From Cytophaga sp. (GTDB lineage: Bacteria > Bacteroidota > Bacteroidia > Cytophagales > Cytophagaceae), in contig NZ_JBQCDF010000135.1 in NCBI RefSeq assembly GCF_051961495.1, positions 1,372 through 65,371 on the forward strand: 64,000 nucleotides of DNA. The letters are read 5' to 3'. Positions within the stretch are counted from its first letter, which is position 1. Each line of letters starts with the position of its first letter. A program made the translations under genes and the position numbers. The notes beneath the pieces were generated by a model. It was given only the letters and a program-made list of their open reading frames with translations. It ran no database searches and was not told where the DNA came from. Below are positions 5,021 to 36,312 of this stretch, in pieces.

Positions 5021-6289
5021 TTATTTGTTAAAGGCCCCATCCATTTTTCTCCGGTCGAATTCGTTTTCATTATTTGCCAGAAAAACGGTTGCCACGCTAT
5101 TGCCGATAAAATTGGTGATTGCTCTGGCCTCCGACATGAAGCGGTCAACAGCTAGCAGCAGCGCCAGGCCTTCAACCGGAATAACTTTAACCGCTGTTAA
5201 AGTGGATGCGAGTACAATGAACCCGCTGCCTGTTACGCCGGCCGCGCCTTTAGAGGTGATCAGCAAAATGCCGATGATAGACAGGATCTGTGAGAGAGCC
5301 AGGTGTACATGAAATACCTGCGCCAGAAATAATACCGACATCGAGAGATAGATTGTGGTACCATCGAGGTTGAAGGAGTAACCGGCAGGCACAACCAAAC
5401 CAACAACCGGTTTGGAACAGCCCATGCGTTCAAGCTTTTCCATGAGCGAAGGCAGCGCCGCTTCGGAAGAAGAAGTTCCCAATACGATCAATAGTTCTTC
5501 ACGAATATATTTCAACAACGACAACAAACGGATTTTGTAGTACCACAAGATCAGACCGAGAACGACAAAAATAAAAAGTGCCATGGTGATGTACACGGTC
5601 AGCATGAGTTTGCCTAGTGGCAGCAAGGTTGTAAGTCCGTATTTGGAAATGGTGAATGCCATACCGCCGAAGGCCCCGATGGGTGCAAGCAGCATGACAT
5701 AATGCAGGGCTTTAAAAAGTTTTTTGGAAATGGGTTGCAGCCAGTCAATTAATTGTTGTCGCTTATGATATCTGCTGAGCATGATTCCCGAAACAATGGC
5801 GATCAATACAACCTGCAGCGTTACATTGTCTTTTAAAAAATGGAACCAGCTGAAATCTTCGGCACGCTTGGTGTAGGTACTGATGTCTCCGCCCGCAACG
5901 GAAGATGTTACCACGCCGTCACCCGGACGAATGACCCAGGCTGCGCCAACGCCGATCAGCAAGGCAAAGGTTGTTACAATTTCAAAATACAACAAGGCTT
6001 TCGCACCTACCTTACCTGCCTTTTTCAAATCACTCATGGAAGCAATGCCCAGCGTGATCGTTAAGAAGATGATTGGGTTGATGAATATTTTAACCAGTGA
6101 AATAAACAGACTGCTGAGAAATTCGGTAAAGGTTGTTTTAATTTCTATATCGGTCAGGTAAAGATTTAATTTGAAAGGCTTATCCAATACGGGCATTAAT
6201 GCGGTCTGCGGATAAACATGTCCGAGCCACACACCAAGCACAATAGCTGTCAGCACCCAGAAGGTAAGATTGGAAAAAATTCTTTTCAT
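5021..6289 (-). CDS. dctA: Dicarboxylate/amino acid:cation symporter (DAACS family)
   Basis: LGTSSSEAALP, VVPAGYSFNLDGT, TSKGAAGVTG, DRFMSEARAITNFIGNSVA. Confidence 0.9.
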   Translation of the reverse strand: MKRIFSNLTFWVLTAIVLGVWLGHVYPQTALMPVLDKPFKLNLYLTDIEIKTTFTEFLSSLFISLVKIFINPIIFLTITLGIASMSDLKKAGKVGAKALLYFEIVTTFALLIGVGAAWVIRPGDGVVTSSVAGGDISTYTKRAEDFSWFHFLKDNVTLQVVLIAIVSGIMLSRYHKRQQLIDWLQPISKKLFKALHYVMLLAPIGAFGGMAFTISKYGLTTLLPLGKLMLTVYITMALFIFVVLGLILWYYKIRLLSLLKYIREELLIVLGTSSSEAALPSLMEKLERMGCSKPVVGLVVPAGYSFNLDGTTIYLSMSVLFLAQVFHVHLALSQILSIIGILLITSKGAAGVTGSGFIVLASTLTAVKVIPVEGLALLLAVDRFMSEARAITNFIGNSVATVFLANNENEFDRRKMDGAFNK

Positions 6290-7091: not shown

Positions 7092-8219
7092 TTACTTGAT
7101 ACTCTTTACTAACGTTTGAATGCAATAATCTATTTCGTCTTTGGTATTATATCTTCCGAAAGAAAAACGCACATAGCCCCAATCGTCTTTGGCGCCAATG
7201 GCTTCCAATACATGCGAACCAATATTCGTGCCGCTGGTGCAGGCGCTGCCGGCAGATGCAGAAATTTTTGCAATGTCCAGGTTCATCACCAGCATCTCGT
7301 TATTTTCTGATGGCGGCAGACTTACGTTCAGCACATGCACCAGGCTTTTATCGATATCAGCAGATTCGCCATTGAATAATAAGCCGGGAATTTTATTCAG
7401 CTCTTCAATCATGTATTTTTTCAGCTCTATGATATGCATGCGATCTTCATCCATGCGCTGGTAGGCAAGTTCCAAAGCTTTGGCCATACCTACGATGGCG
7501 GCCGTGTTTTCTGTTCCGCCGCGCATGTTGCGCTCCTGCGCGCCGCCATGCATATAAGGATAGATCGTTGAGCCGGCTTTTAAGTATAACAAACCAATGC
7601 CTTTTGGTCCGTGGAATTTATGCGCAGAGCCGGCAATGAAATCAACCGGCAGAGATAATAAATGCAAAGGATAATGACCAATGGTCTGTACCGTATCGCT
7701 GTGAAAAAAAGCGCTGTACTGCTGGCAAAGTTCACCGGTCTTTTTCAGATCCAGGATATTGCCGATCTCGTTGTTGCCGTGCATCAGACTGACCAACGCC
7801 GGTGTGTTTGCCCTGAGCAACGATTCAAGATGAGCCAGGCTAATAACACCCTGCTCATTTACATCTACATAGTGGACAGTAACGCGGTTCAGTTTTTCCA
7901 GATACTGCACGGTATGCAGTACCGCATGGTGTTCAAGCCGGCTGGTAATGATGTGTTTGATGTTGTGTTTTTCAACCGCACCGATGATCGCAGTATTATC
8001 TGCTTCGGTTCCGCCGGAGGTAAAAAAGATCTCCGCTGCCGTGGTGTTCAGCAGGTCTGCAATTTTCTTGCGCGCAATCTCAATGGCCGACCGCGTTTCA
8101 CGGCCATGTCCGTGTATGGAAGAAGCATTGCCAAAGCGGTCCGTTAAATAAGGCATCATGGCTTCGAGAACCTGCGGATCTAAAGCCGTTGTTGCTGCAT
8201 TATCTAAGTAAACACGCAT
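7092..8219 (-). CDS. iscS: Cysteine desulfurase (group I, IscS/NifS-like)
   Basis: YLDNAATT, FTSGGTEADN, HKFHGPKG (PLP Lys), SAGSACTSG (catalytic Cys). Likely ATG at 8219, overlapping the glmM stop by 20 nt. Confidence 0.93.
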   Translation of the reverse strand: MRVYLDNAATTALDPQVLEAMMPYLTDRFGNASSIHGHGRETRSAIEIARKKIADLLNTTAAEIFFTSGGTEADNTAIIGAVEKHNIKHIITSRLEHHAVLHTVQYLEKLNRVTVHYVDVNEQGVISLAHLESLLRANTPALVSLMHGNNEIGNILDLKKTGELCQQYSAFFHSDTVQTIGHYPLHLLSLPVDFIAGSAHKFHGPKGIGLLYLKAGSTIYPYMHGGAQERNMRGGTENTAAIVGMAKALELAYQRMDEDRMHIIELKKYMIEELNKIPGLLFNGESADIDKSLVHVLNVSLPPSENNEMLVMNLDIAKISASAGSACTSGTNIGSHVLEAIGAKDDWGYVRFSFGRYNTKDEIDYCIQTLVKSIK

Positions 8220-9603
8220 TGGTTTCAAGCACTTCTTTTATATCGTTGATAATTTTATGAGCCAAATTGTCTGCAGTTGCATGGGTGTCTGCTTCCGCAT
8301 AGATACGAATGATCGGCTCGGTGTTGGATTTACGTAAGTGTACCCAGCCTGCTTCAAAGTCAAAACGTACTCCGTCGACTGTGATCATAGGTGTTTTTGC
8401 GTAATGCTCCTTTATTTTTTCGATCACACAATCCACGTCAATTTCCGGAGTCAATTCAATTTTATTTTTTGAAATAACATAGTTCGGGTAGCTGGCACGC
8501 ATCATGGAAATAGACTTTCCGTATTTCGCCAGATGAGAAAGGAACAAGGCAATACCTACTAAGGCGTCTCTGCCGTAATGCAGTTCAGGATAGATCACAC
8601 CGCCGTTGCCTTCACCGCCGATCACAGCTTTATTCTTCTTCATGGCCGTAACTACGTTCACTTCACCAACGGCAGAAGCGATATAGTTTTTACCATGTTT
8701 CTCCGTTACATCTTTTAATGCCCGTGTTGAGGACAGGTTTGAAACCGTATTGCCCGGTGTATTTTTCAATACATAATCAGCAATGGCAACCAGTGTGTAC
8801 TCTTCGCCGAACATACTTCCGTCTTCGTTCACAAAACACAAACGGTCAACATCCGGATCTACCACGATGCCTAAATCGTAATGACCTTTTTCGATTTCAT
8901 TGGAAATGAATGAAAGGTTTTCCGGCAGCGGTTCCGGGTTGTGCGGGAAGTGTCCGTCGGGTTCGCAGTAGAACGCAGAAACTTTTTTAACGCCCAATGC
9001 TTTCAGCAGTAAGGGTAGTGCAATACCACCCGTAGAATTTACACAGTCAATGGCAACGGAAAAATCCTTTGCCTGGATCGCTGCCACATCTACCAATGGT
9101 AATTTTAAAATAGCGTCAATATGTTTTTGAATGTAGCTGTCGTCTTTGCGGTATGAACCGAAATGTTTTACATCTACAAATTCAATATTTTCTTTTTTAG
9201 CAAGAACCAGAATTTTTTTACCGTCGCGCTCTGAAACAAATTCTCCATTAGCGTTCAGTAACTTCAAGGCATTCCATTGGCCCGGGTTATGACTGGCAGT
9301 AATGATGATACCGCCGGCTGCCTGCTCCCACACAACAGCCATTTCTACGGTTGGTGTCGTTGATAGACCTAAATCCACTACATCAAATCCAAGGCACCGT
9401 AACGTTTCTGTAACGATGGAAGAAATCCATGGTCCCGATAAACGGGCATCACGGCCGATAACGATCTTATTATTATTTGAAGCACTTCTTGCCCACGTTC
9501 CGTATGCTGCAGCAAATTTCGCCACATCGATCGGTGTTAACGAGTCGCCGGGTTTACCGCCGATAGTTCCGCGGATTCCGGAAATAGATTTAATTAAAGT
9601 CAC
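8200..9603 (-). CDS. glmM: Phosphoglucosamine mutase / phosphohexomutase
   Basis: SISGIRG, TASHNP (phospho-Ser), DPDVDR metal loop, GGEGNGG, LRKSNTEP; GTG start. Confidence 0.88.
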   Translation of the reverse strand: MTLIKSISGIRGTIGGKPGDSLTPIDVAKFAAAYGTWARSASNNNKIVIGRDARLSGPWISSIVTETLRCLGFDVVDLGLSTTPTVEMAVVWEQAAGGIIITASHNPGQWNALKLLNANGEFVSERDGKKILVLAKKENIEFVDVKHFGSYRKDDSYIQKHIDAILKLPLVDVAAIQAKDFSVAIDCVNSTGGIALPLLLKALGVKKVSAFYCEPDGHFPHNPEPLPENLSFISNEIEKGHYDLGIVVDPDVDRLCFVNEDGSMFGEEYTLVAIADYVLKNTPGNTVSNLSSTRALKDVTEKHGKNYIASAVGEVNVVTAMKKNKAVIGGEGNGGVIYPELHYGRDALVGIALFLSHLAKYGKSISMMRASYPNYVISKNKIELTPEIDVDCVIEKIKEHYAKTPMITVDGVRFDFEAGWVHLRKSNTEPIIRIYAEADTHATADNLAHKIINDIKEVLETNACLLR

Positions 9604-9627
9604 AGTTAAAAAGATTTATTGTGTAAC

Positions 9628-9635
9628 CAAATTTA
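9628..9635 (-). promoter_or_regulatory. Bacteroidota -7 promoter box for the glmM-iscS run
   Basis: CAAATTTA on + = TAAATTTG on minus, about 25 nt upstream of the GTG. Confidence 0.55.
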
Positions 9636-9775
9636 CAAAACAGAAACCATATACAATCTTTTCTTTTTAAAATTATACAAACAAATATTTTATCAACATC
9701 CGGCTAAAATTTCTTTATGAAAACAAGCATTAGTAAATAGAATATGGTTATTTGTTATATAAACGTCTTTTTGTT

Positions 9776-10570
9776 ATGAATTCAAGAGCAGAGCAATTAA
9801 AAGCATTTGACCGTTTGTTGACGATCATGGATGAATTGCGGGAACAATGTCCGTGGGATAAAAAACAAACCATTGAAAGTTTGCGCTATTTAACCATTGA
9901 AGAAACGTTTGAACTCTCGGATGCCATTGTCGACAAGAACATGGATGAGATCAAAAAGGAGTTGGGCGATATCATGCTACATCTGGTTTTTTATGCCCGG
10001 ATCGCTTCAGAGACTAATGATTTTGATATTGGAGATGTACTGAATGCCCTCTCGGAAAAGATGATCCGCCGCCACCCGCATATCTATGGCGATGTAAAGG
10101 CAGAAGACGAAGAAGCCGTAAAGAAAAACTGGGAGCAGATCAAGATGACGGAAAAGCCGAAGGAAGAATCTATTTTAAGCGGTGTTCCCAAATCACTGCC
10201 GGCTATGATCAAAGCTACCCGTATACAGGAGAAAGCCCGTGGCGCCGGTTTCGACTGGGAAGAAAAAAAACAGGTCTGGGAAAAGGTGGAAGAAGAACTT
10301 GCAGAATTCAAGCGGGAATTTAACATAGAAGACGATAAAAAGATTGACGCATTTAAAGCCGAAGGCGAACTCGGTGATTTATTTTTCTCCCTGATTAATT
10401 ACGCCCGCTTCCTGAACATCAACCCCGAAGATGCACTGGAGCGCACCAATAAAAAATTCATCAAACGTTTTCAGTATCTGGAAAGAGAATCCAGAAAAGA
10501 TGGCAAGCAATTAAACACCATGAGCCTGGCCGAAATGGATGAATACTGGAATGCAGCGAAGAAGGCTTAA
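9776..10570 (+). CDS. mazG: Nucleoside triphosphate pyrophosphohydrolase
   Basis: LREQCPWDKKQT, EETFEL, ELGD, KMIRRHPH, tandem second MazG domain (GFDW...EELAE...ELGDL). Likely start MNSRAEQ at 9776. Confidence 0.95.
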   Translation: MNSRAEQLKAFDRLLTIMDELREQCPWDKKQTIESLRYLTIEETFELSDAIVDKNMDEIKKELGDIMLHLVFYARIASETNDFDIGDVLNALSEKMIRRHPHIYGDVKAEDEEAVKKNWEQIKMTEKPKEESILSGVPKSLPAMIKATRIQEKARGAGFDWEEKKQVWEKVEEELAEFKREFNIEDDKKIDAFKAEGELGDLFFSLINYARFLNINPEDALERTNKKFIKRFQYLERESRKDGKQLNTMSLAEMDEYWNAAKKA

Positions 10571-10595
10571 GGCGGAATGCCTAAGGCTTAATGCT
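10561..10595 (+). repeat. 7-bp periodic array, TAAGGCT family (copy A)
   Basis: gaaggct taaggcg gaatgcc taaggct taatgct; contains the mazG stop codon. Confidence 0.8.
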
Positions 10596-10674
10596 TTTGC
10601 GTTTCATTAATCATTTTAGTTTGTAAATTTTATTCTCATCTTTAAAGTACTGAAGTTAAAAATAAAGAAATGAC

Positions 10675-10710
10675 AAGCCTTAGGCTTTAAGCATTTCGCC
10701 TTAGGTTTAA
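10675..10710 (-). repeat. 7-bp periodic array, TAAGGCT family (copy B, inverted)
   Basis: Reverse complement: taaacc taaggcg aaatgct taaagcc taaggct. Confidence 0.8.
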
Positions 10711-10715
10711 CACCC

Positions 10716-10994
10716 ATGGAAACATTTAAAAAAATATACAAAGCCGCTTTCTATTTGAATATCGTACTGTTTCTTTTTTTCTTTTATTCGTTGTATCAGT
10801 ATGGCGAAACCTATTCAGATATAAAAACTCCGGATAAAACAGAAGCCATTACGAGCCATGGAAAAACGTATTATGTCAGTAAAGCAGATCAGCATAAAAT
10901 GAATATCATCGGCTGGACTTCTTTATCACTGTTTGTTTCCGTGTTAGGTATCGGTTTGTATTATAAGGTTAAATATAAGAAGGATCTTTTGTAG
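10716..10994 (+). CDS. Small two-TM hypothetical membrane protein
   Basis: 92 aa; two hydrophobic helices with a polar loop; bracketed by arrays B and C. Confidence 0.7.
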   Translation: METFKKIYKAAFYLNIVLFLFFFYSLYQYGETYSDIKTPDKTEAITSHGKTYYVSKADQHKMNIIGWTSLSLFVSVLGIGLYYKVKYKKDLL

Positions 10995-10997
10995 ACG

Positions 10998-11032
10998 TAA
11001 AGCATAAGGCGGAACGCCGAAGGCTTAAAGCT
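10998..11032 (+). repeat. 7-bp periodic array, TAAGGCT family (copy C)
   Basis: taaagca taaggcg gaacgcc gaaggct taaagct. Confidence 0.8.
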
Positions 11033-11086
11033 TTTCACATTAAGCTTTTTTCTTTATCTTAGTATTACTATCGTTTTAATCTTCAC

Positions 11087-11239
11087 ATGAAACCTATTAA
11101 TACTCAAAGCAAATCTTCGGCCAATAAGCAGTTAAATGTTTATGAGGAACGTTTTTTGTTATTAATGAAATTAATGAAAATTGATCGAATGCTGCGCAAC
11201 GCAACGATTATCCATTCGGAAAATAAACCAAAGAAATAA
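11087..11239 (+). CDS. Small 50-aa protein translationally coupled to the nucleotidyltransferase (candidate antitoxin)
   Basis: Manual translation MKPINTQSKSSANKQLNVYEERFLLLMKLMKIDRMLRNATIIHSENKPKK*; TAATG stop/start overlap with 11239; below the ORF-track size cutoff. Confidence 0.65.
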   Translation: MKPINTQSKSSANKQLNVYEERFLLLMKLMKIDRMLRNATIIHSENKPKK

Positions 11240-11718
11240 TGGATATTTTTGATGAAGAGGTTTTAAATCTCTGGAAGGCGTTTCACAAAAACAAATTTCA
11301 ATATATTATGGTTGGAGGTTTCGCAACCAATCTGAATGGCTTTTCAAGAACAACTGCAGATATTGATATATGGTTAAAAGATACTCCACAAAATAGAATA
11401 CATCTCAAAGATTCTCTGGCACAAATGGGTCTTGGTGATTTGCCGCAAATGGAGCGGATGGATTTTATTCCCGGCTGGTCTTCCATTAGACTTAACTCAG
11501 GCATGGAACTGGATCTAATGTCTTATATAAAAGGCTTCGAACAGGAAACATTTGATGCATGCTATCAATCAGCATCAACAGCTGTTATTTTTGACATACC
11601 AATAAAGTTCTTGCATATCAATCACCTGATTGAAAGCAAAAAAGCCTGCGACAGGCCAAAGGATAAAATCGATGTGTTGGAATTGGAGCGAATTAAGGCT
11701 GAACGAGAAAGATTGTAA
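11239..11718 (+). CDS. Minimal nucleotidyltransferase (DUF6036/AbiEii-like)
   Basis: YIMVGGFA...RTTADIDIW (GG + DxD Pol-beta-fold motif); C-terminal LIESKKACDRPKDKIDV. Confidence 0.85.
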   Translation: MDIFDEEVLNLWKAFHKNKFQYIMVGGFATNLNGFSRTTADIDIWLKDTPQNRIHLKDSLAQMGLGDLPQMERMDFIPGWSSIRLNSGMELDLMSYIKGFEQETFDACYQSASTAVIFDIPIKFLHINHLIESKKACDRPKDKIDVLELERIKAERERL

Positions 11719-11752
11719 TAAGCTTAAGGCCTTAGCTTTTCGCTTTAAGCTA
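11719..11752 (-). repeat. 7-bp periodic array, TAAGGCT family (copy D, inverted)
   Basis: Reverse complement: tagct taaagcg aaaagct aaggcct taagctt; contains the EamA stop codon. Confidence 0.7.
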
Positions 11753-12566
11753 TAATATTCAGCACCATCCCCAGCATCACCAAACCCACGCCAACCGAGG
11801 ATTTCAGGCTGATGTACTCGCCGAAGAACGTGATGCCGTAGAAAAAAGAAAGTACAATACCCAGATAATACACGTAGGAAATATTTTTCACCTCTTCGTG
11901 TTTATAGGCTTTGGTCAGGAAAAGCTGTCCCACATGTGTGGTAATTCCAATCAACAATAGAAACAACCATTCCCGTGCATCCGGTGTTTTCCATTCTGTA
12001 AAGATAAAGGGCAGCATACAAGGAATGGTAATGAACGGAAAGTAAAACATGATCACGGCGGTATCGTCGGTGTCGCGCAGTGTACGTACAACGAAGTGCG
12101 CTGTGGCCGTAAAGAAGGCTGCACACAAACCAAGGATGATTCCTACGGTTGACAGGTCTTTATCCAACCCTTTCATTAAAAACACACCCAGAAAAGAGAT
12201 GCCGAAAAACAACCATTTCAAATGCGGGATCTTTTCTTTCAGAAATAAGAAAGCCAGAAATAAGGTAAAGAAAGGAACGAGATTGCCGATGGTTACTGCT
12301 GTTCCCAGTGGCAGCAGTTGTATGGAATAAAAGAAACAGATCAGCGAAAACATGCCGACCAAACCACGCAGCACCAGAAATGGTTTGTTGTTTCCCCACA
12401 CCGGAACCCTGGCTTGCCGGATTGCGATGTAGCAGAATATAATGGAAAAGACAGACCGGATAAAAATTGTTTGTACAACGGGAATCTCCGGAATCGCTTT
12501 CACACACAAATGCATGAGTGAAAAGGAGACAATGGAGATAAGCATGTAGCGGATACCGAGCGTCAT
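11745..12566 (-). CDS. DMT/EamA family transporter
   Basis: About 10 TM segments, duplicated EamA pattern (LVLRGLVG, FLKEKI, GQLFLTKAY). Confidence 0.9.
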   Translation of the reverse strand: MTLGIRYMLISIVSFSLMHLCVKAIPEIPVVQTIFIRSVFSIIFCYIAIRQARVPVWGNNKPFLVLRGLVGMFSLICFFYSIQLLPLGTAVTIGNLVPFFTLFLAFLFLKEKIPHLKWLFFGISFLGVFLMKGLDKDLSTVGIILGLCAAFFTATAHFVVRTLRDTDDTAVIMFYFPFITIPCMLPFIFTEWKTPDAREWLFLLLIGITTHVGQLFLTKAYKHEEVKNISYVYYLGIVLSFFYGITFFGEYISLKSSVGVGLVMLGMVLNIIA

Positions 12567-12601
12567 GAGTACAAAGTACTAAGTACGGAGTACAGAGTAT
12601 G
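12567..12601 (+). repeat. 7-bp periodic array, GAGTACA family
   Basis: gagtaca aagtact aagtacg gagtaca gagtatg; abuts the EamA start; inverted partial copy at about 12647-12667 spanning the rluD stop. Confidence 0.8.
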
Positions 12602-12659
12602 AGAAATAAATTATAATAATGGAAAGGGTTTCAAAATAGAATTTTTTGTATACTGTACT

Positions 12660-13706
12660 CTATACTTCTTCGCCCACATAGCGTTCCCATTTATCGAGTA
12701 CGGCCTGCATATCATCCGGCAACTTGCTGTCGAACTGCATAAATTCCTTTGTGGTGGGATGTACGAAGCCCAGCGTTTTGGCATGCAGTGCCTGGCGTGG
12801 TAATAGTTTGAAACAATTCTCAACAAACTGTTTGTACTTACCTGTTACTGTTCCTTTCACCACTGCATCACCTCCATAACTCATGTCATTAAATAACGGG
12901 TGGCCGATCGACCGCATGTGTGCACGGATCTGGTGTGTACGCCCGGTCTCCAGATTACATTGCACCAATGCAACATAATGATAGGCGTTCAGGGTTTTAT
13001 AATGTGTGATGGCCAGCTTGCCATCTTCTTCGTTGTCGTAGGTAGCAACAATCTTGCGGTCTTTCGTACTTCTTCCCAGGTAATTGCGGATGGTTCCGTC
13101 TTTGGGTTGTGGTGTACCCCAGGTGATGGCATAATAAGTGCGTTCTATGGTATGGTCCGCAAACTGTTTTGCCATGAAGGTCATGGCATAATCTGTTTTT
13201 GCAATTACCAATAAGCCTGAAGTATCTTTATCAATGCGGTGTACCAGGCCCGGCCGGATTTCTCCGTTGCGGTGCGTCGGCAGATTTTCAAAATGGTACG
13301 CGAGTGCGTTAACAAGGGTGCCGGTCCAGTTGCCGTGTGCGGGGTGCACCACCATGCCCGGTTTTTTATTTACAATCAGTATCTGATCATCTTCATACAC
13401 AATATCCAGCGGAATGTTTTCCGGGATCAATACATTTTCACGCGGCGGATGCGGTAGCGAAATAGTAATCACGTCACCCGGCTTTACCTTATAACTGGCT
13501 TTGGTTGGCTTATCGTTTACACGAACAGCTTCTGCTTCAATACCATATTGAATACGGGAGCGCGTCGCATTTTGAATACGCGACATCAGAAATTTATCGA
13601 TGCGCAGCAACGTTTGTCCGGGGTCGCAAACCACACGGTGGTGTTCAAACAATTCGTCTTCCGCGAACCCGTCTTCTAATTCTTCCGGTAGTTGATTTTC
13701 TGCCAT
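12660..13706 (-). CDS. rluD: RluA/RluD family 23S rRNA pseudouridine synthase
   Basis: S4 domain (LRIDKFL..RSRIQ), VNKKPGMVVHP, catalytic VHRIDKDTSG, LETGRTHQIRAH, RQALHA. Likely start MAENQ at 13706. Confidence 0.92.
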   Translation of the reverse strand: MAENQLPEELEDGFAEDELFEHHRVVCDPGQTLLRIDKFLMSRIQNATRSRIQYGIEAEAVRVNDKPTKASYKVKPGDVITISLPHPPRENVLIPENIPLDIVYEDDQILIVNKKPGMVVHPAHGNWTGTLVNALAYHFENLPTHRNGEIRPGLVHRIDKDTSGLLVIAKTDYAMTFMAKQFADHTIERTYYAITWGTPQPKDGTIRNYLGRSTKDRKIVATYDNEEDGKLAITHYKTLNAYHYVALVQCNLETGRTHQIRAHMRSIGHPLFNDMSYGGDAVVKGTVTGKYKQFVENCFKLLPRQALHAKTLGFVHPTTKEFMQFDSKLPDDMQAVLDKWERYVGEEV

Positions 13707-13780
13707 AACTGTAAAGGTACGGAAACCTTCGATAAGAAACGACATGTTTGATGATTTGAGCTTTAGGGCATTTATTGGTA

Positions 13781-13920
13781 AAATTCCAAAATTCAAAAAA
13801 CAAATTCCAAACAGCCGTAAAGTTAGTTATTAGCATTTACTTTTCTTGCCAGCAATTTGTTTAAGTTATTTGTGTGGCTTGTTGAGTAGTTTGGAATTTG
13901 TTTTTTGTAATTTGGAATTT
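13781..13920. repeat. 32-bp inverted repeat (AAATTCC 7-bp-periodic family) in divergent intergenic region
   Basis: 13781-13812 AAATTCCAAAATTCAAAAAACAAATTCCAAAC vs reverse complement of 13889-13920 AAATTCCAAATTACAAAAAACAAATTCCAAAC; 76-bp spacer. Confidence 0.85.
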
Positions 13921-13931
13921 CTACACGAATT

Positions 13932-14840
13932 ATGCTATTACATAGTAACCTTGAGCGTATTCAATTACCACTTCTTGAAGCAGCAGACGTTCAATTGTAC
14001 CTGAAACGTGAGGACTTAATCCATCCCTTATATGGTGGAAATAAGATCCGGAAGCTGAAATACAATGTAATGCAATGTGTGAAGGAAAGGAAAAGCGGAT
14101 TGCTTACTTGCGGTGGTGCGTATTCCAACCACATACTTGCAACGGCGGCGTATGCTAAAGAGCAGGGTTTGAAAATCAAAGCATTGATTCGTGGTGAGGA
14201 ACTGCTGATTGAAAACCCGACACTGAAAGATGCCGCTGCTCTTGGCATGGAGTTCGTTTTTGTTTCGAGGGAAGTATATAGAAGCATTCGTGAAAATCCG
14301 AAACTGGCGTTTGAAGCAAGTGATTCAAGCAGTAAAGAATTTTATTTTGTTCCCGAAGGAGGAACAAATGCATTTGCGGTTGAAGGAGTTGCTGAGCTGG
14401 TGCAGGAGATTGATGTGCCATTTGATTATATCACAACCCCTTGCGGCACGGGCGGAACATTCGGCGGTTTGATGAAAGGCATTAAAGATCTTGATTGTAA
14501 GCTGCTTGTTTTTTCAGCCTTGAAGAATGGTGATTATATTATTGATGAAGTTGCTGCTTTATTGAAAGAAGATTTTGACCGCAGCAAGCTAGCGCTGTTC
14601 ACTTCGGATTATGTTTTTGGTGGCTATGGAAAGGTGAAACCGGAACTTGTTGACTTTGTAAAAGATTTTGAACAACAAACAGGTATTTTACTTGATCCGG
14701 TCTACAATGGAAAAATGATGTTCGGCTTGCTGGATAAAATTGCAAACGGGTATTTTAAAAAAGGCTCAGTAATAGTAGCGCTGCATACAGGTGGTGTGCA
14801 GGCATGGAGAGGCTTTGGAAGCATAGAGCTAAAGACTTAA
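13932..14840 (+). CDS. PLP-dependent ACC deaminase / D-cysteine desulfhydrase family protein
   Basis: LKREDL...GGNKIRKL, GGAYSNH, VPEGG, CGTGGT, LDPVYNGKM, HTGG. Confidence 0.9.
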   Translation: MLLHSNLERIQLPLLEAADVQLYLKREDLIHPLYGGNKIRKLKYNVMQCVKERKSGLLTCGGAYSNHILATAAYAKEQGLKIKALIRGEELLIENPTLKDAAALGMEFVFVSREVYRSIRENPKLAFEASDSSSKEFYFVPEGGTNAFAVEGVAELVQEIDVPFDYITTPCGTGGTFGGLMKGIKDLDCKLLVFSALKNGDYIIDEVAALLKEDFDRSKLALFTSDYVFGGYGKVKPELVDFVKDFEQQTGILLDPVYNGKMMFGLLDKIANGYFKKGSVIVALHTGGVQAWRGFGSIELKT

Positions 14841-14849
14841 AGCTGGGGG

Positions 14850-14874
14850 AAATTCCAAAAAACAAATTCCAAAC
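14850..14874 (+). repeat. AAATTCC-family repeat copy
   Basis: AAATTCCAAAAAACAAATTCCAAAC, 9 nt after the ACC-deaminase-like stop. Confidence 0.75.
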
Positions 14875-15080
14875 GGAGACAAATCTAACCAACCCACGAC
14901 TCAACCCGTTGTTGTGCCACCGGCCAACAACCCACTGTTCTGAGATGATAAATTCAGTAAGTGGTTGGCATTCGCAGCGAACAAAACTACTATACAAGTC
15001 AAAGAAAAATCATCAGGCTGAAGACCTGAAACAAATTAACTTGCATCGCCGCAAGGCAAAGTGGGGGTAATATGAAACGA

Positions 15081-15115
15081 TTTACACTTTACACTTTTTA
15101 CTTTACACTTCGCTT
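15081..15115 (+). repeat. 7-bp periodic array, TTTACAC family
   Basis: tttacac tttacac tttttac tttacac ttcgctt, upstream of the dipeptidase start. Confidence 0.8.
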
Positions 15116-15150
15116 TCTATATTTACATACTACACTCATAACCAAATACT

Positions 15151-16530
15151 ATGTCTCAACTTACTGCTGCTGCTGTTTCTGCTTATGTGGAACAAAACAA
15201 AGATCGTTTTATTGGTGAACTGTGCGACTGGCTGAAGATTCCTTCTGTCAGTGCCGACAAGAAATTCAAAGCAGACGTGATCCGTGCAGCAGAATTTGCG
15301 AAAGAACAATTTTTAAAAGCCGGTGCAGATAAAGCAGAGCTTTGTGAAACAGGCGGCAATCCGGTTGTGTATGCAGAGAAAATGGTTGATCCGGCAAAAC
15401 CGACAATTCTGGTTTATGGTCACTATGATGTGCAGCCGGCAGATCCATATGAACTGTGGACTTCACCTCCCTTCGAACCGGTTATTAAAGATGGAAACAT
15501 TTATGCCCGCGGTGCCTGCGACGACAAAGGCCAGGTATACATGCACATCAAAGCGCTGGAGATTTTAACAGCGATGAAGGATGTGCCATGCAACATCAAA
15601 TTCATGATTGAAGGCGAAGAAGAAGTTGGTTCTGATAACCTTGGTCCGTTCCTGGAAAAAAATAAAGAAAAGTTGAAAGCCGATGTGATCCTGGTTTCAG
15701 ACACAGCAATCTTCTCTGTCGATACGCCTTCGATAACGATTGGTTTGAGAGGCTTAAGTTACCTGGAAGTAAAAGTTACCGGTCCCAACCGAGACCTGCA
15801 TTCCGGTGTATATGGCGGTGCGGTTGCCAACCCGATCAATATTTTATGTGAAATGATCGCGGGCATGAAAGATGAAAACAATCACATTGTAATTCCTGGC
15901 TTCTATGATGCTGTGCTTGAGCTGAGTGATGCAGACCGTAAAGCGTTGAACAGTGCACCGTTCAATTTAGATAATTATAAAAAAGCATTGGACATTGCCG
16001 ATGTGGAAGGTGAAAAAGGCTTCACTACCTTAGAAAGAACCTCCATCCGTCCAACGCTGGATGTTAACGGCATCTGGGGCGGTTACATTGGTGAAGGCGC
16101 AAAAACAGTATTGCCATCCATCGCACAGGCGAAGATTTCCATGCGTTTGGTACCGAACCAGACACCGGAAAAGATTACGCAGTTGTTTACGGACTATTTC
16201 AAAAGTATCGCACCGGCATCGGTAAAAGTAGAAGTTACGCCGCATCACGGCGGTGAACCGGCAATTACACCAACCGACAGTGCCGGCTATAAGGCAGCTG
16301 AAGCAGCATTTGCTGAAGCCTGGAACAAAAAACCAATTCCGATGCGTGAAGGCGGCAGTATTCCGATTGTTGCCTTGTTTGAAAAAGTTTTGGGTTTGAA
16401 AACCGTATTGATGGGTTTTGGACTGGATTCAGATGCGATCCACTCACCTAATGAGCACTACAGGGTATTTAATTACCTGAAAGGAATTGAAACGATTGTG
16501 CTGTTCCATAAGTATTTCGCGGGGAAGTAG
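15151..16530 (+). CDS. M20 family dipeptidase (ArgE/DapE/Dug1-like)
   Basis: YGHYDVQP, ARGACDDKG, EGEEEVGS, DLHSG..GG, HSPNE. Confidence 0.93.
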   Translation: MSQLTAAAVSAYVEQNKDRFIGELCDWLKIPSVSADKKFKADVIRAAEFAKEQFLKAGADKAELCETGGNPVVYAEKMVDPAKPTILVYGHYDVQPADPYELWTSPPFEPVIKDGNIYARGACDDKGQVYMHIKALEILTAMKDVPCNIKFMIEGEEEVGSDNLGPFLEKNKEKLKADVILVSDTAIFSVDTPSITIGLRGLSYLEVKVTGPNRDLHSGVYGGAVANPINILCEMIAGMKDENNHIVIPGFYDAVLELSDADRKALNSAPFNLDNYKKALDIADVEGEKGFTTLERTSIRPTLDVNGIWGGYIGEGAKTVLPSIAQAKISMRLVPNQTPEKITQLFTDYFKSIAPASVKVEVTPHHGGEPAITPTDSAGYKAAEAAFAEAWNKKPIPMREGGSIPIVALFEKVLGLKTVLMGFGLDSDAIHSPNEHYRVFNYLKGIETIVLFHKYFAGK

Positions 16531-35953: not shown

Positions 35954-35984
35954 GAATGCGAAATGCTTAAAGCCTAAGGCTTAA
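35954..35984 (+). repeat. 7-bp periodic array, TAAGGCT family (copy E)
   Basis: gaatgcg aaatgct taaagcc taaggct; 35958-35982 is identical to the reverse complement of 10675-10699. Confidence 0.8.
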
Positions 35985-36208: not shown

Positions 36209-36224
36209 AGGTAATTTCTTTAGT

Positions 36225-36312
36225 CTCTGTACTCTATACTCCGTACTTTATACTTGTACTCTCCGTACTCTATACTCTCGTCTGGAAACCAGTAACTAGA
36301 ACCTGGCAACTA
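36225..36312 (-). repeat. GAGTACA-family 7-bp array followed by a second heptamer array
   Basis: Reverse complement reads agttgcc aggttct agttact ggtttcc ... gagtata gagtacg ga gagtaca agtata aagtacg gagtata gagtaca, starting just after the ABC-F stop. Confidence 0.75.

Follow-up and report, generated by a model that had tools for sequence, protein, structure and literature searches.

Heptamer-repeat hairpins at a mazG–EamA junction of Cytophaga: fast-changing intergenic repeats and probable substrates for gene deletion

In the stretch of Cytophaga sp. DNA analysed here (64,000 nt of contig NZ_JBQCDF010000135.1, assembly GCF_051961495.1; hereafter the window), an insert of three small open reading frames (ORFs) between mazG and EamA is bordered and divided by four arrays of degenerate 7 nt units. 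We found that these arrays belong to a genome-wide class of period-7 repeats that fill gene junctions and change rapidly between close relatives. With moderate confidence, we favour the explanation that they are hairpin-forming junction repeats, similar to the short tandemly repeated repetitive (STRR) sequences of cyanobacteria, and that they take a passive part in deletion or exchange between repeat copies. Two differences in gene content among related genomes have their breakpoints inside such arrays, and the gene pair concerned has diverged in step with the core genes of its host.

Layout of the insert

Throughout, G000 denotes the genome of the window, G001 to G005 are five further genomes of the same genus, numbers with the prefix L denote compared loci, and F5 is the AARGCNN unit family to which the four arrays belong. 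The first-pass annotation had placed four arrays in alternating orientation between mazG and EamA, with the stop codons of the flanking genes inside the outer two and ORFs of 92, 50 and 159 aa between them. Sequence reading, self-comparison and a pattern scan bear out the positions and orientations of the arrays, and the three ORFs were found as described. Pfam confirms MazG and EamA, and the stop codon of mazG (TAA, 10568–10570) lies inside array 1 and that of EamA inside array 4. The features, in window coordinates, are as follows.

9752–10570, + strand: mazG, followed by a 145 nt gap
10561–10598, + strand: array 1, five degenerate AARGCNN heptamers, found by pattern scan and self-comparison and kept in G005
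10599–10674: loop of hairpin 1, about 76 nt, with no ORF and no second copy in the genome, kept in the orthologous hairpin of G005
10675–10711, − strand: array 2, pairing with array 1 to give a 150 nt hairpin
10716–10994, + strand: orf92, 92 aa, followed by a 92 nt gap
10998–11048, + strand: array 3, a (+) arm at 10998–11035 and then its own short (−) partner at 11030–11048
11087–11239, + strand: orf50, 50 aa, overlapping the next ORF by one base
11239–11718, + strand: NTase, 159 aa, a DUF6036-family nucleotidyltransferase
11719–11753, − strand: array 4, a lone arm filling the 26 nt gap between the NTase stop and the EamA stop
11745–12566, − strand: EamA, identified by Pfam
12567–12667: hairpin of the EamA/rluD junction, a neighbouring junction with a different family (AGTACNG), which shows that such hairpins are not confined to the insert
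35955–35982, + strand: a further F5 arm, 24 kb away, with a 25 nt exact match to array 2

The pattern AARGCNNAADGCNNAARGC, scanned across the window with at most one mismatch, matched 11 times, whereas 100 shuffles gave an expectation of 0.08 ± 0.37. Nine of these matches fall at the four arrays in the orientations described (10562–10587(+), 10677–10702(−), 10999–11031(+), 11735–11753(−) and the (−) partner at 11030–11048), and the other two at 35955–35980. Chance or low complexity is ruled out as the source of the arrays by this count and by the period-specific excess reported below. The AARGCNN heptamer is itself near-palindromic (AAGGCTT versus AAGCCTT). Array 1 is 86% identical to array 3 over 37 nt and 83% complementary to array 2 over 29 nt, and array 3 has a 7 bp AT-rich stem followed by a T-run (T6). 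The layout is a 150 nt hairpin (arrays 1 and 2), a mini-hairpin (array 3) and a lone arm (array 4). The arrays that had been thought to partition the insert into units are real, but they are not four equivalent boundaries.

The mazG–EamA interval in related genomes

The comparison covered the five same-genus genomes and metagenome contigs, with synteny compared over 64 kb. The first-pass annotation had proposed that gene content between mazG and EamA would vary among relatives with breakpoints in the arrays. The interval does vary, and two of the content differences (G005; G004/G002) have breakpoints of this kind.

In G005, which is ~92% identical to G000 at the nucleotide level in the flanking genes, array 1, the same loop and one (−) array lie between mazG and EamA. 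The left part of this (−) array follows array 2 of G000 and its right part follows array 4, the right half of which is collinear with it; the switch falls inside TTTCGCCTTA. A chimeric single array where the genes are missing is the expected product of deletion between direct repeats. In the other case, G004 carries orf50–NTase between two 170 nt AAATTCC hairpins that are 93% identical to each other, and the interval of G002 consists of one 170 nt AAATTCC-family hairpin, with no genes. The G002 hairpin resembles a recombinant of the two G004 copies, on a few diagnostic positions only.

The remaining intervals are diverse. That of G003 contains two GC-rich hairpins in 58 nt, without heptamer arrays. 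In G001 (L006/L058) the junction is occupied by an unrelated 5.4 kb operon that encodes a TauD-like dioxygenase and two short-chain dehydrogenases beside two unknown ORFs. No arrays border this operon, so foreign DNA can enter the convergent junction without them. Metagenome contigs show three further states. The order in L061 is mazG, AAATTCC hairpin, orf50–NTase, AARGC hairpin, EamA; in L069 an AARGC hairpin, and in L070 an AAATTCC hairpin, lies between NTase and EamA. In both arms and in the stem-proximal ends of the loop, the AARGC hairpins of L061 and L069 match the hairpin of arrays 1 and 2 in G000, although they sit on the opposite side of the NTase pair from it. Two sequencing runs from ~92–94% identical relatives (X5 and X6) contain the full insert with the same architecture. 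The organism itself is present in rhizosphere samples (runs X1–X4). No excision joints were found in the public runs that hold the region, which is weak evidence because assembler contigs drop rare variants.

Within the genus, the NTase pair stays at the mazG/EamA junction. Its NTase gene is 77% (G004) and 83% (L061) identical to that of G000 at the nucleotide level, and the flanking mazG, EamA and glmM genes are 79–81% (G004) and 78–85% (L061) identical. Since the NTase has diverged to the same degree as the flanking core genes, the pair appears to be vertically inherited, an old resident of the junction that was lost in some species.

A genome-wide class of period-7 arrays

A scan of G000 (4.07 Mb, 327 contigs, 40% GC) for the heptamer periodicity, also suggested by the first-pass annotation, revealed a strong excess of period-7 repeats and showed that core genes are among those enclosed by them. 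Tandem Repeats Finder reported 442 period-7 arrays, far above any neighbouring period, with unit families AATTATG (92), AAAGTGT (39), ACAGAGT (28), AAATAAC/AAATTCC (~40) and AAGCCTT-like (~17). When a period segment was defined as a 35 nt window in which at least 19 of 28 positions equal the base 7 nt downstream, G000 held 317 segments of period 7, whereas the same threshold gave 23 segments of period 8, 20 of period 10 and 23 of period 13. The enrichment is limited to period 7 and its multiple 14, and periods 5, 6, 8 and 9 are not enriched. Although the genome is ~90% coding by a crude ORF call, 281 of the 317 period-7 segments are mostly non-coding. At least six unit families coexist in G000.

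The arrays occupy 220 junctions on many contigs (7% of junctions genome-wide), and convergent junctions are occupied more often (16%) than other types (6–7%). Among stop-side neighbours, 128 of 323 lie within 5 nt of a stop codon. An inverted partner, defined as at least 21 of 28 matches within 2.5 kb, is present for 133 of the 281 non-coding arrays, compared with 1 of 281 when the queries were shuffled. Seventy-one inverted pairs are hairpins with loops of 11–146 nt and a median minimum free energy (MFE) of −44 kcal/mol, and these usually span the whole intergenic gap. The typical form is two inverted arms, each of about four to six degenerate 7 nt units, around a loop of that length, the first arm usually starting no more than 5 nt from a stop codon. 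The element formed by arrays 1 and 2 has arms that recur elsewhere in G000 and a loop that does not. Perfect runs of at least 12 units also occur.

Occupied junctions are clustered, with 40 adjacent pairs where ~16 are expected; the sharing of one family between adjacent junctions (7 of 40, 3.9 expected, p = 0.08) is not significant. Whole genes, one or two at a time, lie between the arms of about 30 inverted pairs, dCTP deaminase (dcd) and an Smr-domain protein being among the genes enclosed. Direct same-family pairs enclose genes equally often (30), so that there is no preference for alternating orientation across genes. Genes come to be enclosed because neighbouring junctions carry same-family hairpins, and no gene-bracketing rule follows. 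The thiamine operon (C271:3750–8798) is interrupted at three junctions by AAATTCC hairpins, with the order thiC-[hairpin]-thiD-thiE-[hairpin]-thiG-thiH-[hairpin]-thiF. Two of its AAATTCC hairpins (5475–5678 and 7578–7760) are near-identical, loops included. Hairpins are thus present within core operons, and a complete copy of one can arise at a neighbouring junction. Whole-hairpin copies were seen at neighbouring junctions only.

Other families are represented near the insert. Arrays of the AGTACNG, AAATTCC and AAAGTGT families lie at nearby junctions of the window (12567–12667, 13781–13923, 14850–14874, 15075–15116 and 36221–36278), and at 14830–14880 an AAATTCC arm comes immediately after a short AARGC array, juxtaposing different families. 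We also noted 55 period-11 segments in G000, 42 of them non-coding, compared with ~20 for periods 8, 10 and 13.

Turnover and persistence of unit families

At two of the four array-bearing junctions compared between G000 and G005 (EamA/rluD and rluD/pyridoxal phosphate-enzyme gene), the families differ. At EamA/rluD, G005 has no AGTACNG array and instead carries inverted arms of CGCAAAG-like units, as read by eye. A third junction keeps its arms while the content between them differs by ~1 kb. The limits of the arrays coincide precisely with functional ones: a stop codon on one side and, on the other, a conserved stretch (tatatttacatacta...) that lies shortly before the following start codon. 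Across the 64 kb of synteny, gene content also varies at several junctions that lack arrays, and one array junction keeps its length.

The families themselves are more durable than their positions. All six genomes of the genus carry the F5 pattern (34–109 matches each) and (AATTATR)3 (27–217). Most of the 35 further genomes of the order have few or no matches to either; F5 is common in only four of these (26–122), and AATTATR reaches a maximum of 34 matches. The families are old, while junctions swap families between ~92% identical genomes. Some copying mechanism must keep the families alive. As a separate observation, a reversed control pattern (CGRAA-type heptamers) was enriched elsewhere in the order, with 212 matches in G027, 61 in G011 and 12 in G034. 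G027 is also the richest in copies of S23p (15), a gene considered below, and these counts suggest that other heptamer families exist in G011, G027 and G034.

Genes associated with the arrays

The orf92 product contains hydrophobic stretches, which suggests a membrane protein, but it is an orphan with no Pfam, NCBIfam or PADLOC match. A search of 5.8 billion proteins gave a single homologue (88% identity), encoded on a metagenome contig where the genes again run mazG-orf92-orf50-NT-EamA. We treat orf92 as a candidate that may not be a real gene.

The NTase matches Pfam PF19502 (DUF6036) weakly, at an E value of 3e-4 that is below the cut-off. It has 577 homologues, many of which carry PF19502 or are named DUF6036 NTase; a search by sequence gave no solved relative, and there was no PADLOC or NCBIfam match. 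orf50 has tblastn matches in G004 and L061, and a related ORF, read from the sequences, always stands in the orf50 position immediately upstream of NTase homologues in 17 Bacteroidota loci. Judged by this recurrence in sequence, orf50–NTase is a conserved two-gene module, possibly a toxin–antitoxin-like pair. The module is widespread in Bacteroidota, including Pedobacter, Mucilaginibacter and other Chitinophagaceae. Outside the genus it is mostly without heptamer arrays, and in none of the loci compared does a period-7 array adjoin the module. Copies of a single local sequence (tagtatagtgttaaaactttt ... gggctgcag) lie on both sides of orf50–NTase in Pedobacter sp. ok626 (L037), so that the module stands between direct repeats without heptamers; in another Pedobacter locus (L039) the sequence recurs downstream in part only.

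A second gene associated with the hairpins encodes S23p (PF05635), a small four-helix bundle protein also named 23S rRNA-intervening-sequence protein. Two of the three S23p genes of G000 lie in the loops of heptamer hairpins.

C178:18388–18863: S23p gene, AGTACNG arms
C102:12732–13241: S23p gene, AAATTCC arms

The association extends beyond this genome. In a survey of the best-scoring locus from each of 14 genomes of the order (L071–L084), 7-periodic arrays flanked the S23p gene, on one side or on both and no more than 350 nt away, in 12 of the 14 loci. They were drawn from at least eight unit families, and best-scoring copies within the genus carry different families. The bracket of arrays 3 and 4 around orf50–NTase has the same gene-in-loop form. 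A scheme of one S23p gene per family was rejected, as G000 has three such genes for at least six families and none of the three has F5 arms.

How the arrays may act

The observations are most simply accommodated if the arrays are fast-turning-over junction repeats rather than the ends of mobile cassettes. Similar copies in the same orientation on either side of dispensable genes would allow deletion or exchange between the copies, by homologous recombination or replication slippage and probably aided by the hairpins. Deletions between direct repeats are stimulated by intervening inverted repeats. On this model orf50–NTase would be an old, vertically inherited resident of the mazG/EamA junction, and some species would have lost it by deletion between the flanking arrays, leaving a chimeric array behind. 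We infer that the direction of change was loss rather than gain and that no dedicated enzyme took part. The direct repeats of G004 (170 nt, 93% identity) are sufficient for homologous recombination, while for the deletion that relates G000 to G005 either microhomology slippage or an older, more similar state of the arrays must be assumed.

Several points weigh against this explanation. Arrays 2 and 4 are now only ~70% alike and share short exact runs, so that RecA-dependent recombination is not obviously sufficient, and a site-specific event would leave an identical chimeric junction. The direction of the G000/G005 difference is unproven, given that X5 and X6 (~92–94% identical) have the full insert and G005, at a similar distance, lacks it. 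In the NTase-bearing genomes an array is present at every module boundary in this interval, against the genome-wide occupancy of 7%. Finally, the persistence of the families, and arms that are shared without their loops, point to a copying mechanism that deletion between repeats leaves unexplained.

The position of the arrays at gene ends raises the possibility that the hairpins act in RNA, as terminators, as processing or stabilizing stems or as insulators that halt read-through ribosomes in every frame, and are selected for at gene ends; the cassette-like partition of the insert would then reflect one transcript-end element per gene. Such a role is consistent with the start of arrays at stop codons and their enrichment at convergent junctions, with the T-run after the stem of array 3 and with the strong predicted folds: the hairpin of arrays 1 and 2 has an MFE of −51 kcal/mol (z = −6.1) on the + strand and −34 kcal/mol on the − strand, beside the genome-wide median quoted above. 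Heptamer repeats of Xanthomonas are mostly transcribed (PMC4692102). RNA pairing had been one suggestion of the first-pass annotation, and folding is indeed plausible, but across the genome stability does not favour the transcribed strand. Of the 42 hairpins that separate co-directional genes, 18 fold more stably as the sense strand and 19 as the antisense strand, and RNA-level selection on the sense strand was rejected on this lack of bias. Rfam gave no credible match in 9500–16000. A consensus terminator scan returned two sites where 1.1 are expected, one being a weak 5 bp stem in array 2 on the − strand that does not stand above shuffles, and no site within the arrays lay on the strand of the gene ending there. 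The first of these scans speaks against a known RNA family, and the second gives canonical terminators no support on the strand of the ending gene. Hairpins also lie within the thiamine operon, where termination would be harmful, which argues against obligatory termination, and the replacement of families between ~92% identical genomes argues against locus-specific regulation. None of these tests supports a role in RNA, which we consider unlikely.

The first-pass annotation had also suggested that the arrays may be recombination or insertion sites of an integron-like cassette system. In such a scheme a dedicated system for capturing and excising cassettes would use them as att-like sites, either in the manner of an integron or by recognizing hairpins as IS200/IS605 elements do and as in REPIN–RAYT systems, where REP-doublet hairpins are mobilized by RAYT transposases, with orf92 and orf50–NTase as cargo. 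The breakpoints within arrays and the chimeric arrays agree with it. So do the G004 cargo, which stands between two whole-hairpin copies in the layout of a cassette between two attC sites, the copying of whole hairpins to neighbouring junctions and the almost invariable location of S23p genes inside heptamer hairpin loops. However, arrays also flank core genes and occur inside the thiamine operon, direct and inverted pairs enclose genes equally often (30 each), and the divergence of the NTase fits vertical descent. As a boundary of cassettes the arrays fail further, because the module outside the genus is mostly without them and the G001 insertion has none; the lack of joints in assembled public runs adds a little to this. 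No recombinase is encoded in the window. The genome has five matches to tyrosine recombinase (PF00589), none on the contig of the window, and four to Y1 transposase (PF01797), with no 7-periodic array within 900 nt of any of these four. An integron was rejected because the window holds no recombinase and the cargo stays at one junction and diverges with the flanking genes, and a RAYT/REPIN system because the Y1 transposase genes that are present are not array-flanked. Miniature inverted-repeat transposable elements were rejected as well, since dispersed copies share arms but not loops and no target-site duplications were recognized. We judge a dedicated capture and excision system to be improbable.

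A related proposal takes its protein from the hairpins themselves. Heptamer-arm hairpins could be self-propagating junction elements with their own machinery, for which S23p is the candidate, the arms serving as recombination sites through which S23p, orf50–NTase and orf92 are captured, exchanged or lost. This would amount to a cassette system without an integrase, and the S23p–hairpin link gives it a concrete protein candidate, although we regard it as quite improbable. Little credence is also given to the converse idea, that the arrays are functionless by-products of replication or repair (slippage, template switching) that are copied only locally. Perfect runs of 12 or more units, many unrelated unit families, fast turnover, the lack of strand bias, the clustering of occupied junctions (40 versus 16) and the local duplication of whole hairpins are what such an origin would leave. 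It does not account for the enrichment of period 7 (and 14) but not 5, 6, 8 or 9, for the presence of the same two unit families in all six species of the genus despite changing loci, or for arms of one family that recur at many distant junctions with unrelated loops. Passive repeats that promote deletion remain the explanation that we prefer. They would shape the gene content of junctions, at least by promoting deletions, and the findings caution against reading heptamer arrays as the boundaries of integron-like cassettes.

Comparison with known repeat systems

The cyanobacterial STRRs first brought heptameric repeats of intergenic DNA to notice, and the origin and function of such repeats are still unexplained. 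The analogy with STRRs drawn in the first-pass annotation holds, in that the arrays form a period-7, intergenic, genome-wide class. Both consist of degenerate 7 nt units in tandem, lie in intergenic DNA in tens to hundreds of copies, and comprise several unit sequences of unexplained function. The present arrays belong to another phylum, and differ in the predominance of inverted arms around a unique loop, in their six or more families and in arms that abut stop codons. Cyanobacterial STRR1–3 units differ from those found here (AARGCNN, AATTATG, AAAGTGT, AGTACNG and AAATTCC), and the relatives of the host are Chitinophagaceae/Chitinophagales, not cyanobacteria; the arrays are thus not STRR1–3 in the strict sense.

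Heptameric repeats are over-represented in the intergenic DNA of bacteria that include Calothrix, Nostoc and Xanthomonas (PMC4692102; PMC4679880). The GGGAATC repeats of Xanthomonas and GGGGAYT repeats of Nostoc are under-represented in coding sequence and between divergent ORFs (Rehm et al. 2015, PMC4692102). They often lie within 50 bp of a stop codon, with 70–75 convergent (inverted) pairs per Xanthomonas genome, and are G-rich, interpreted as G-quadruplex formers, with one family per genome and increased stability of neighbouring loci (PMC4692102). Dispersed heptamers near stop codons and inverted pairs are common to those genomes and ours. The units described here are instead AT-rich and near-palindromic, have no G-quadruplex capacity and belong to many families, and their junctions are hot spots of change. 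The TAACTGA direct repeats of marine Beggiatoaceae, cyanobacteria and five Bacteroidetes (MacGregor 2015, PMC4679880) are likewise intergenic heptamers that adjoin gene boundaries, occur in Bacteroidetes and are patchily distributed. They lie mostly a few nt upstream of start codons, with one inverted case in 170 sets (PMC4679880), whereas the present arrays are inverted pairs that begin at stop codons.

In overall shape the elements recall REPINs, which are also extragenic hairpins of ~100–150 nt, built of two inverted short repeats and a spacer and found after genes in tens to hundreds of copies. Here, no Y1/RAYT gene is flanked by arrays, the arms are tandem 7-mers and loops are not conserved between copies. 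Integron attC sites are comparable as imperfect palindromes of 60–150 nt between ORFs, where gene loss leaves one chimeric site, and integrons likewise hold small orphan ORFs and toxin–antitoxin-like pairs between their sites. The differences are that there is no IntI, attI or Pc, that the sites lie between core genes and inside operons, that the cargo diverges with the host, and that the arms are tandem heptamers with no evident R or L boxes.

With at least six families, hairpins that fill junctions, replacement at ~8% divergence and two breakpoint cases, this soil genus is an unusually clear comparative system for such repeats. By their period-7 excess and preference for non-coding DNA, the arrays belong to the class of intergenic heptameric simple sequence repeats typified by STRRs, within which they are set apart by the coexistence of AT-rich, near-palindromic families, by the form of a hairpin with a unique loop, and by breakpoints of gene presence and absence.

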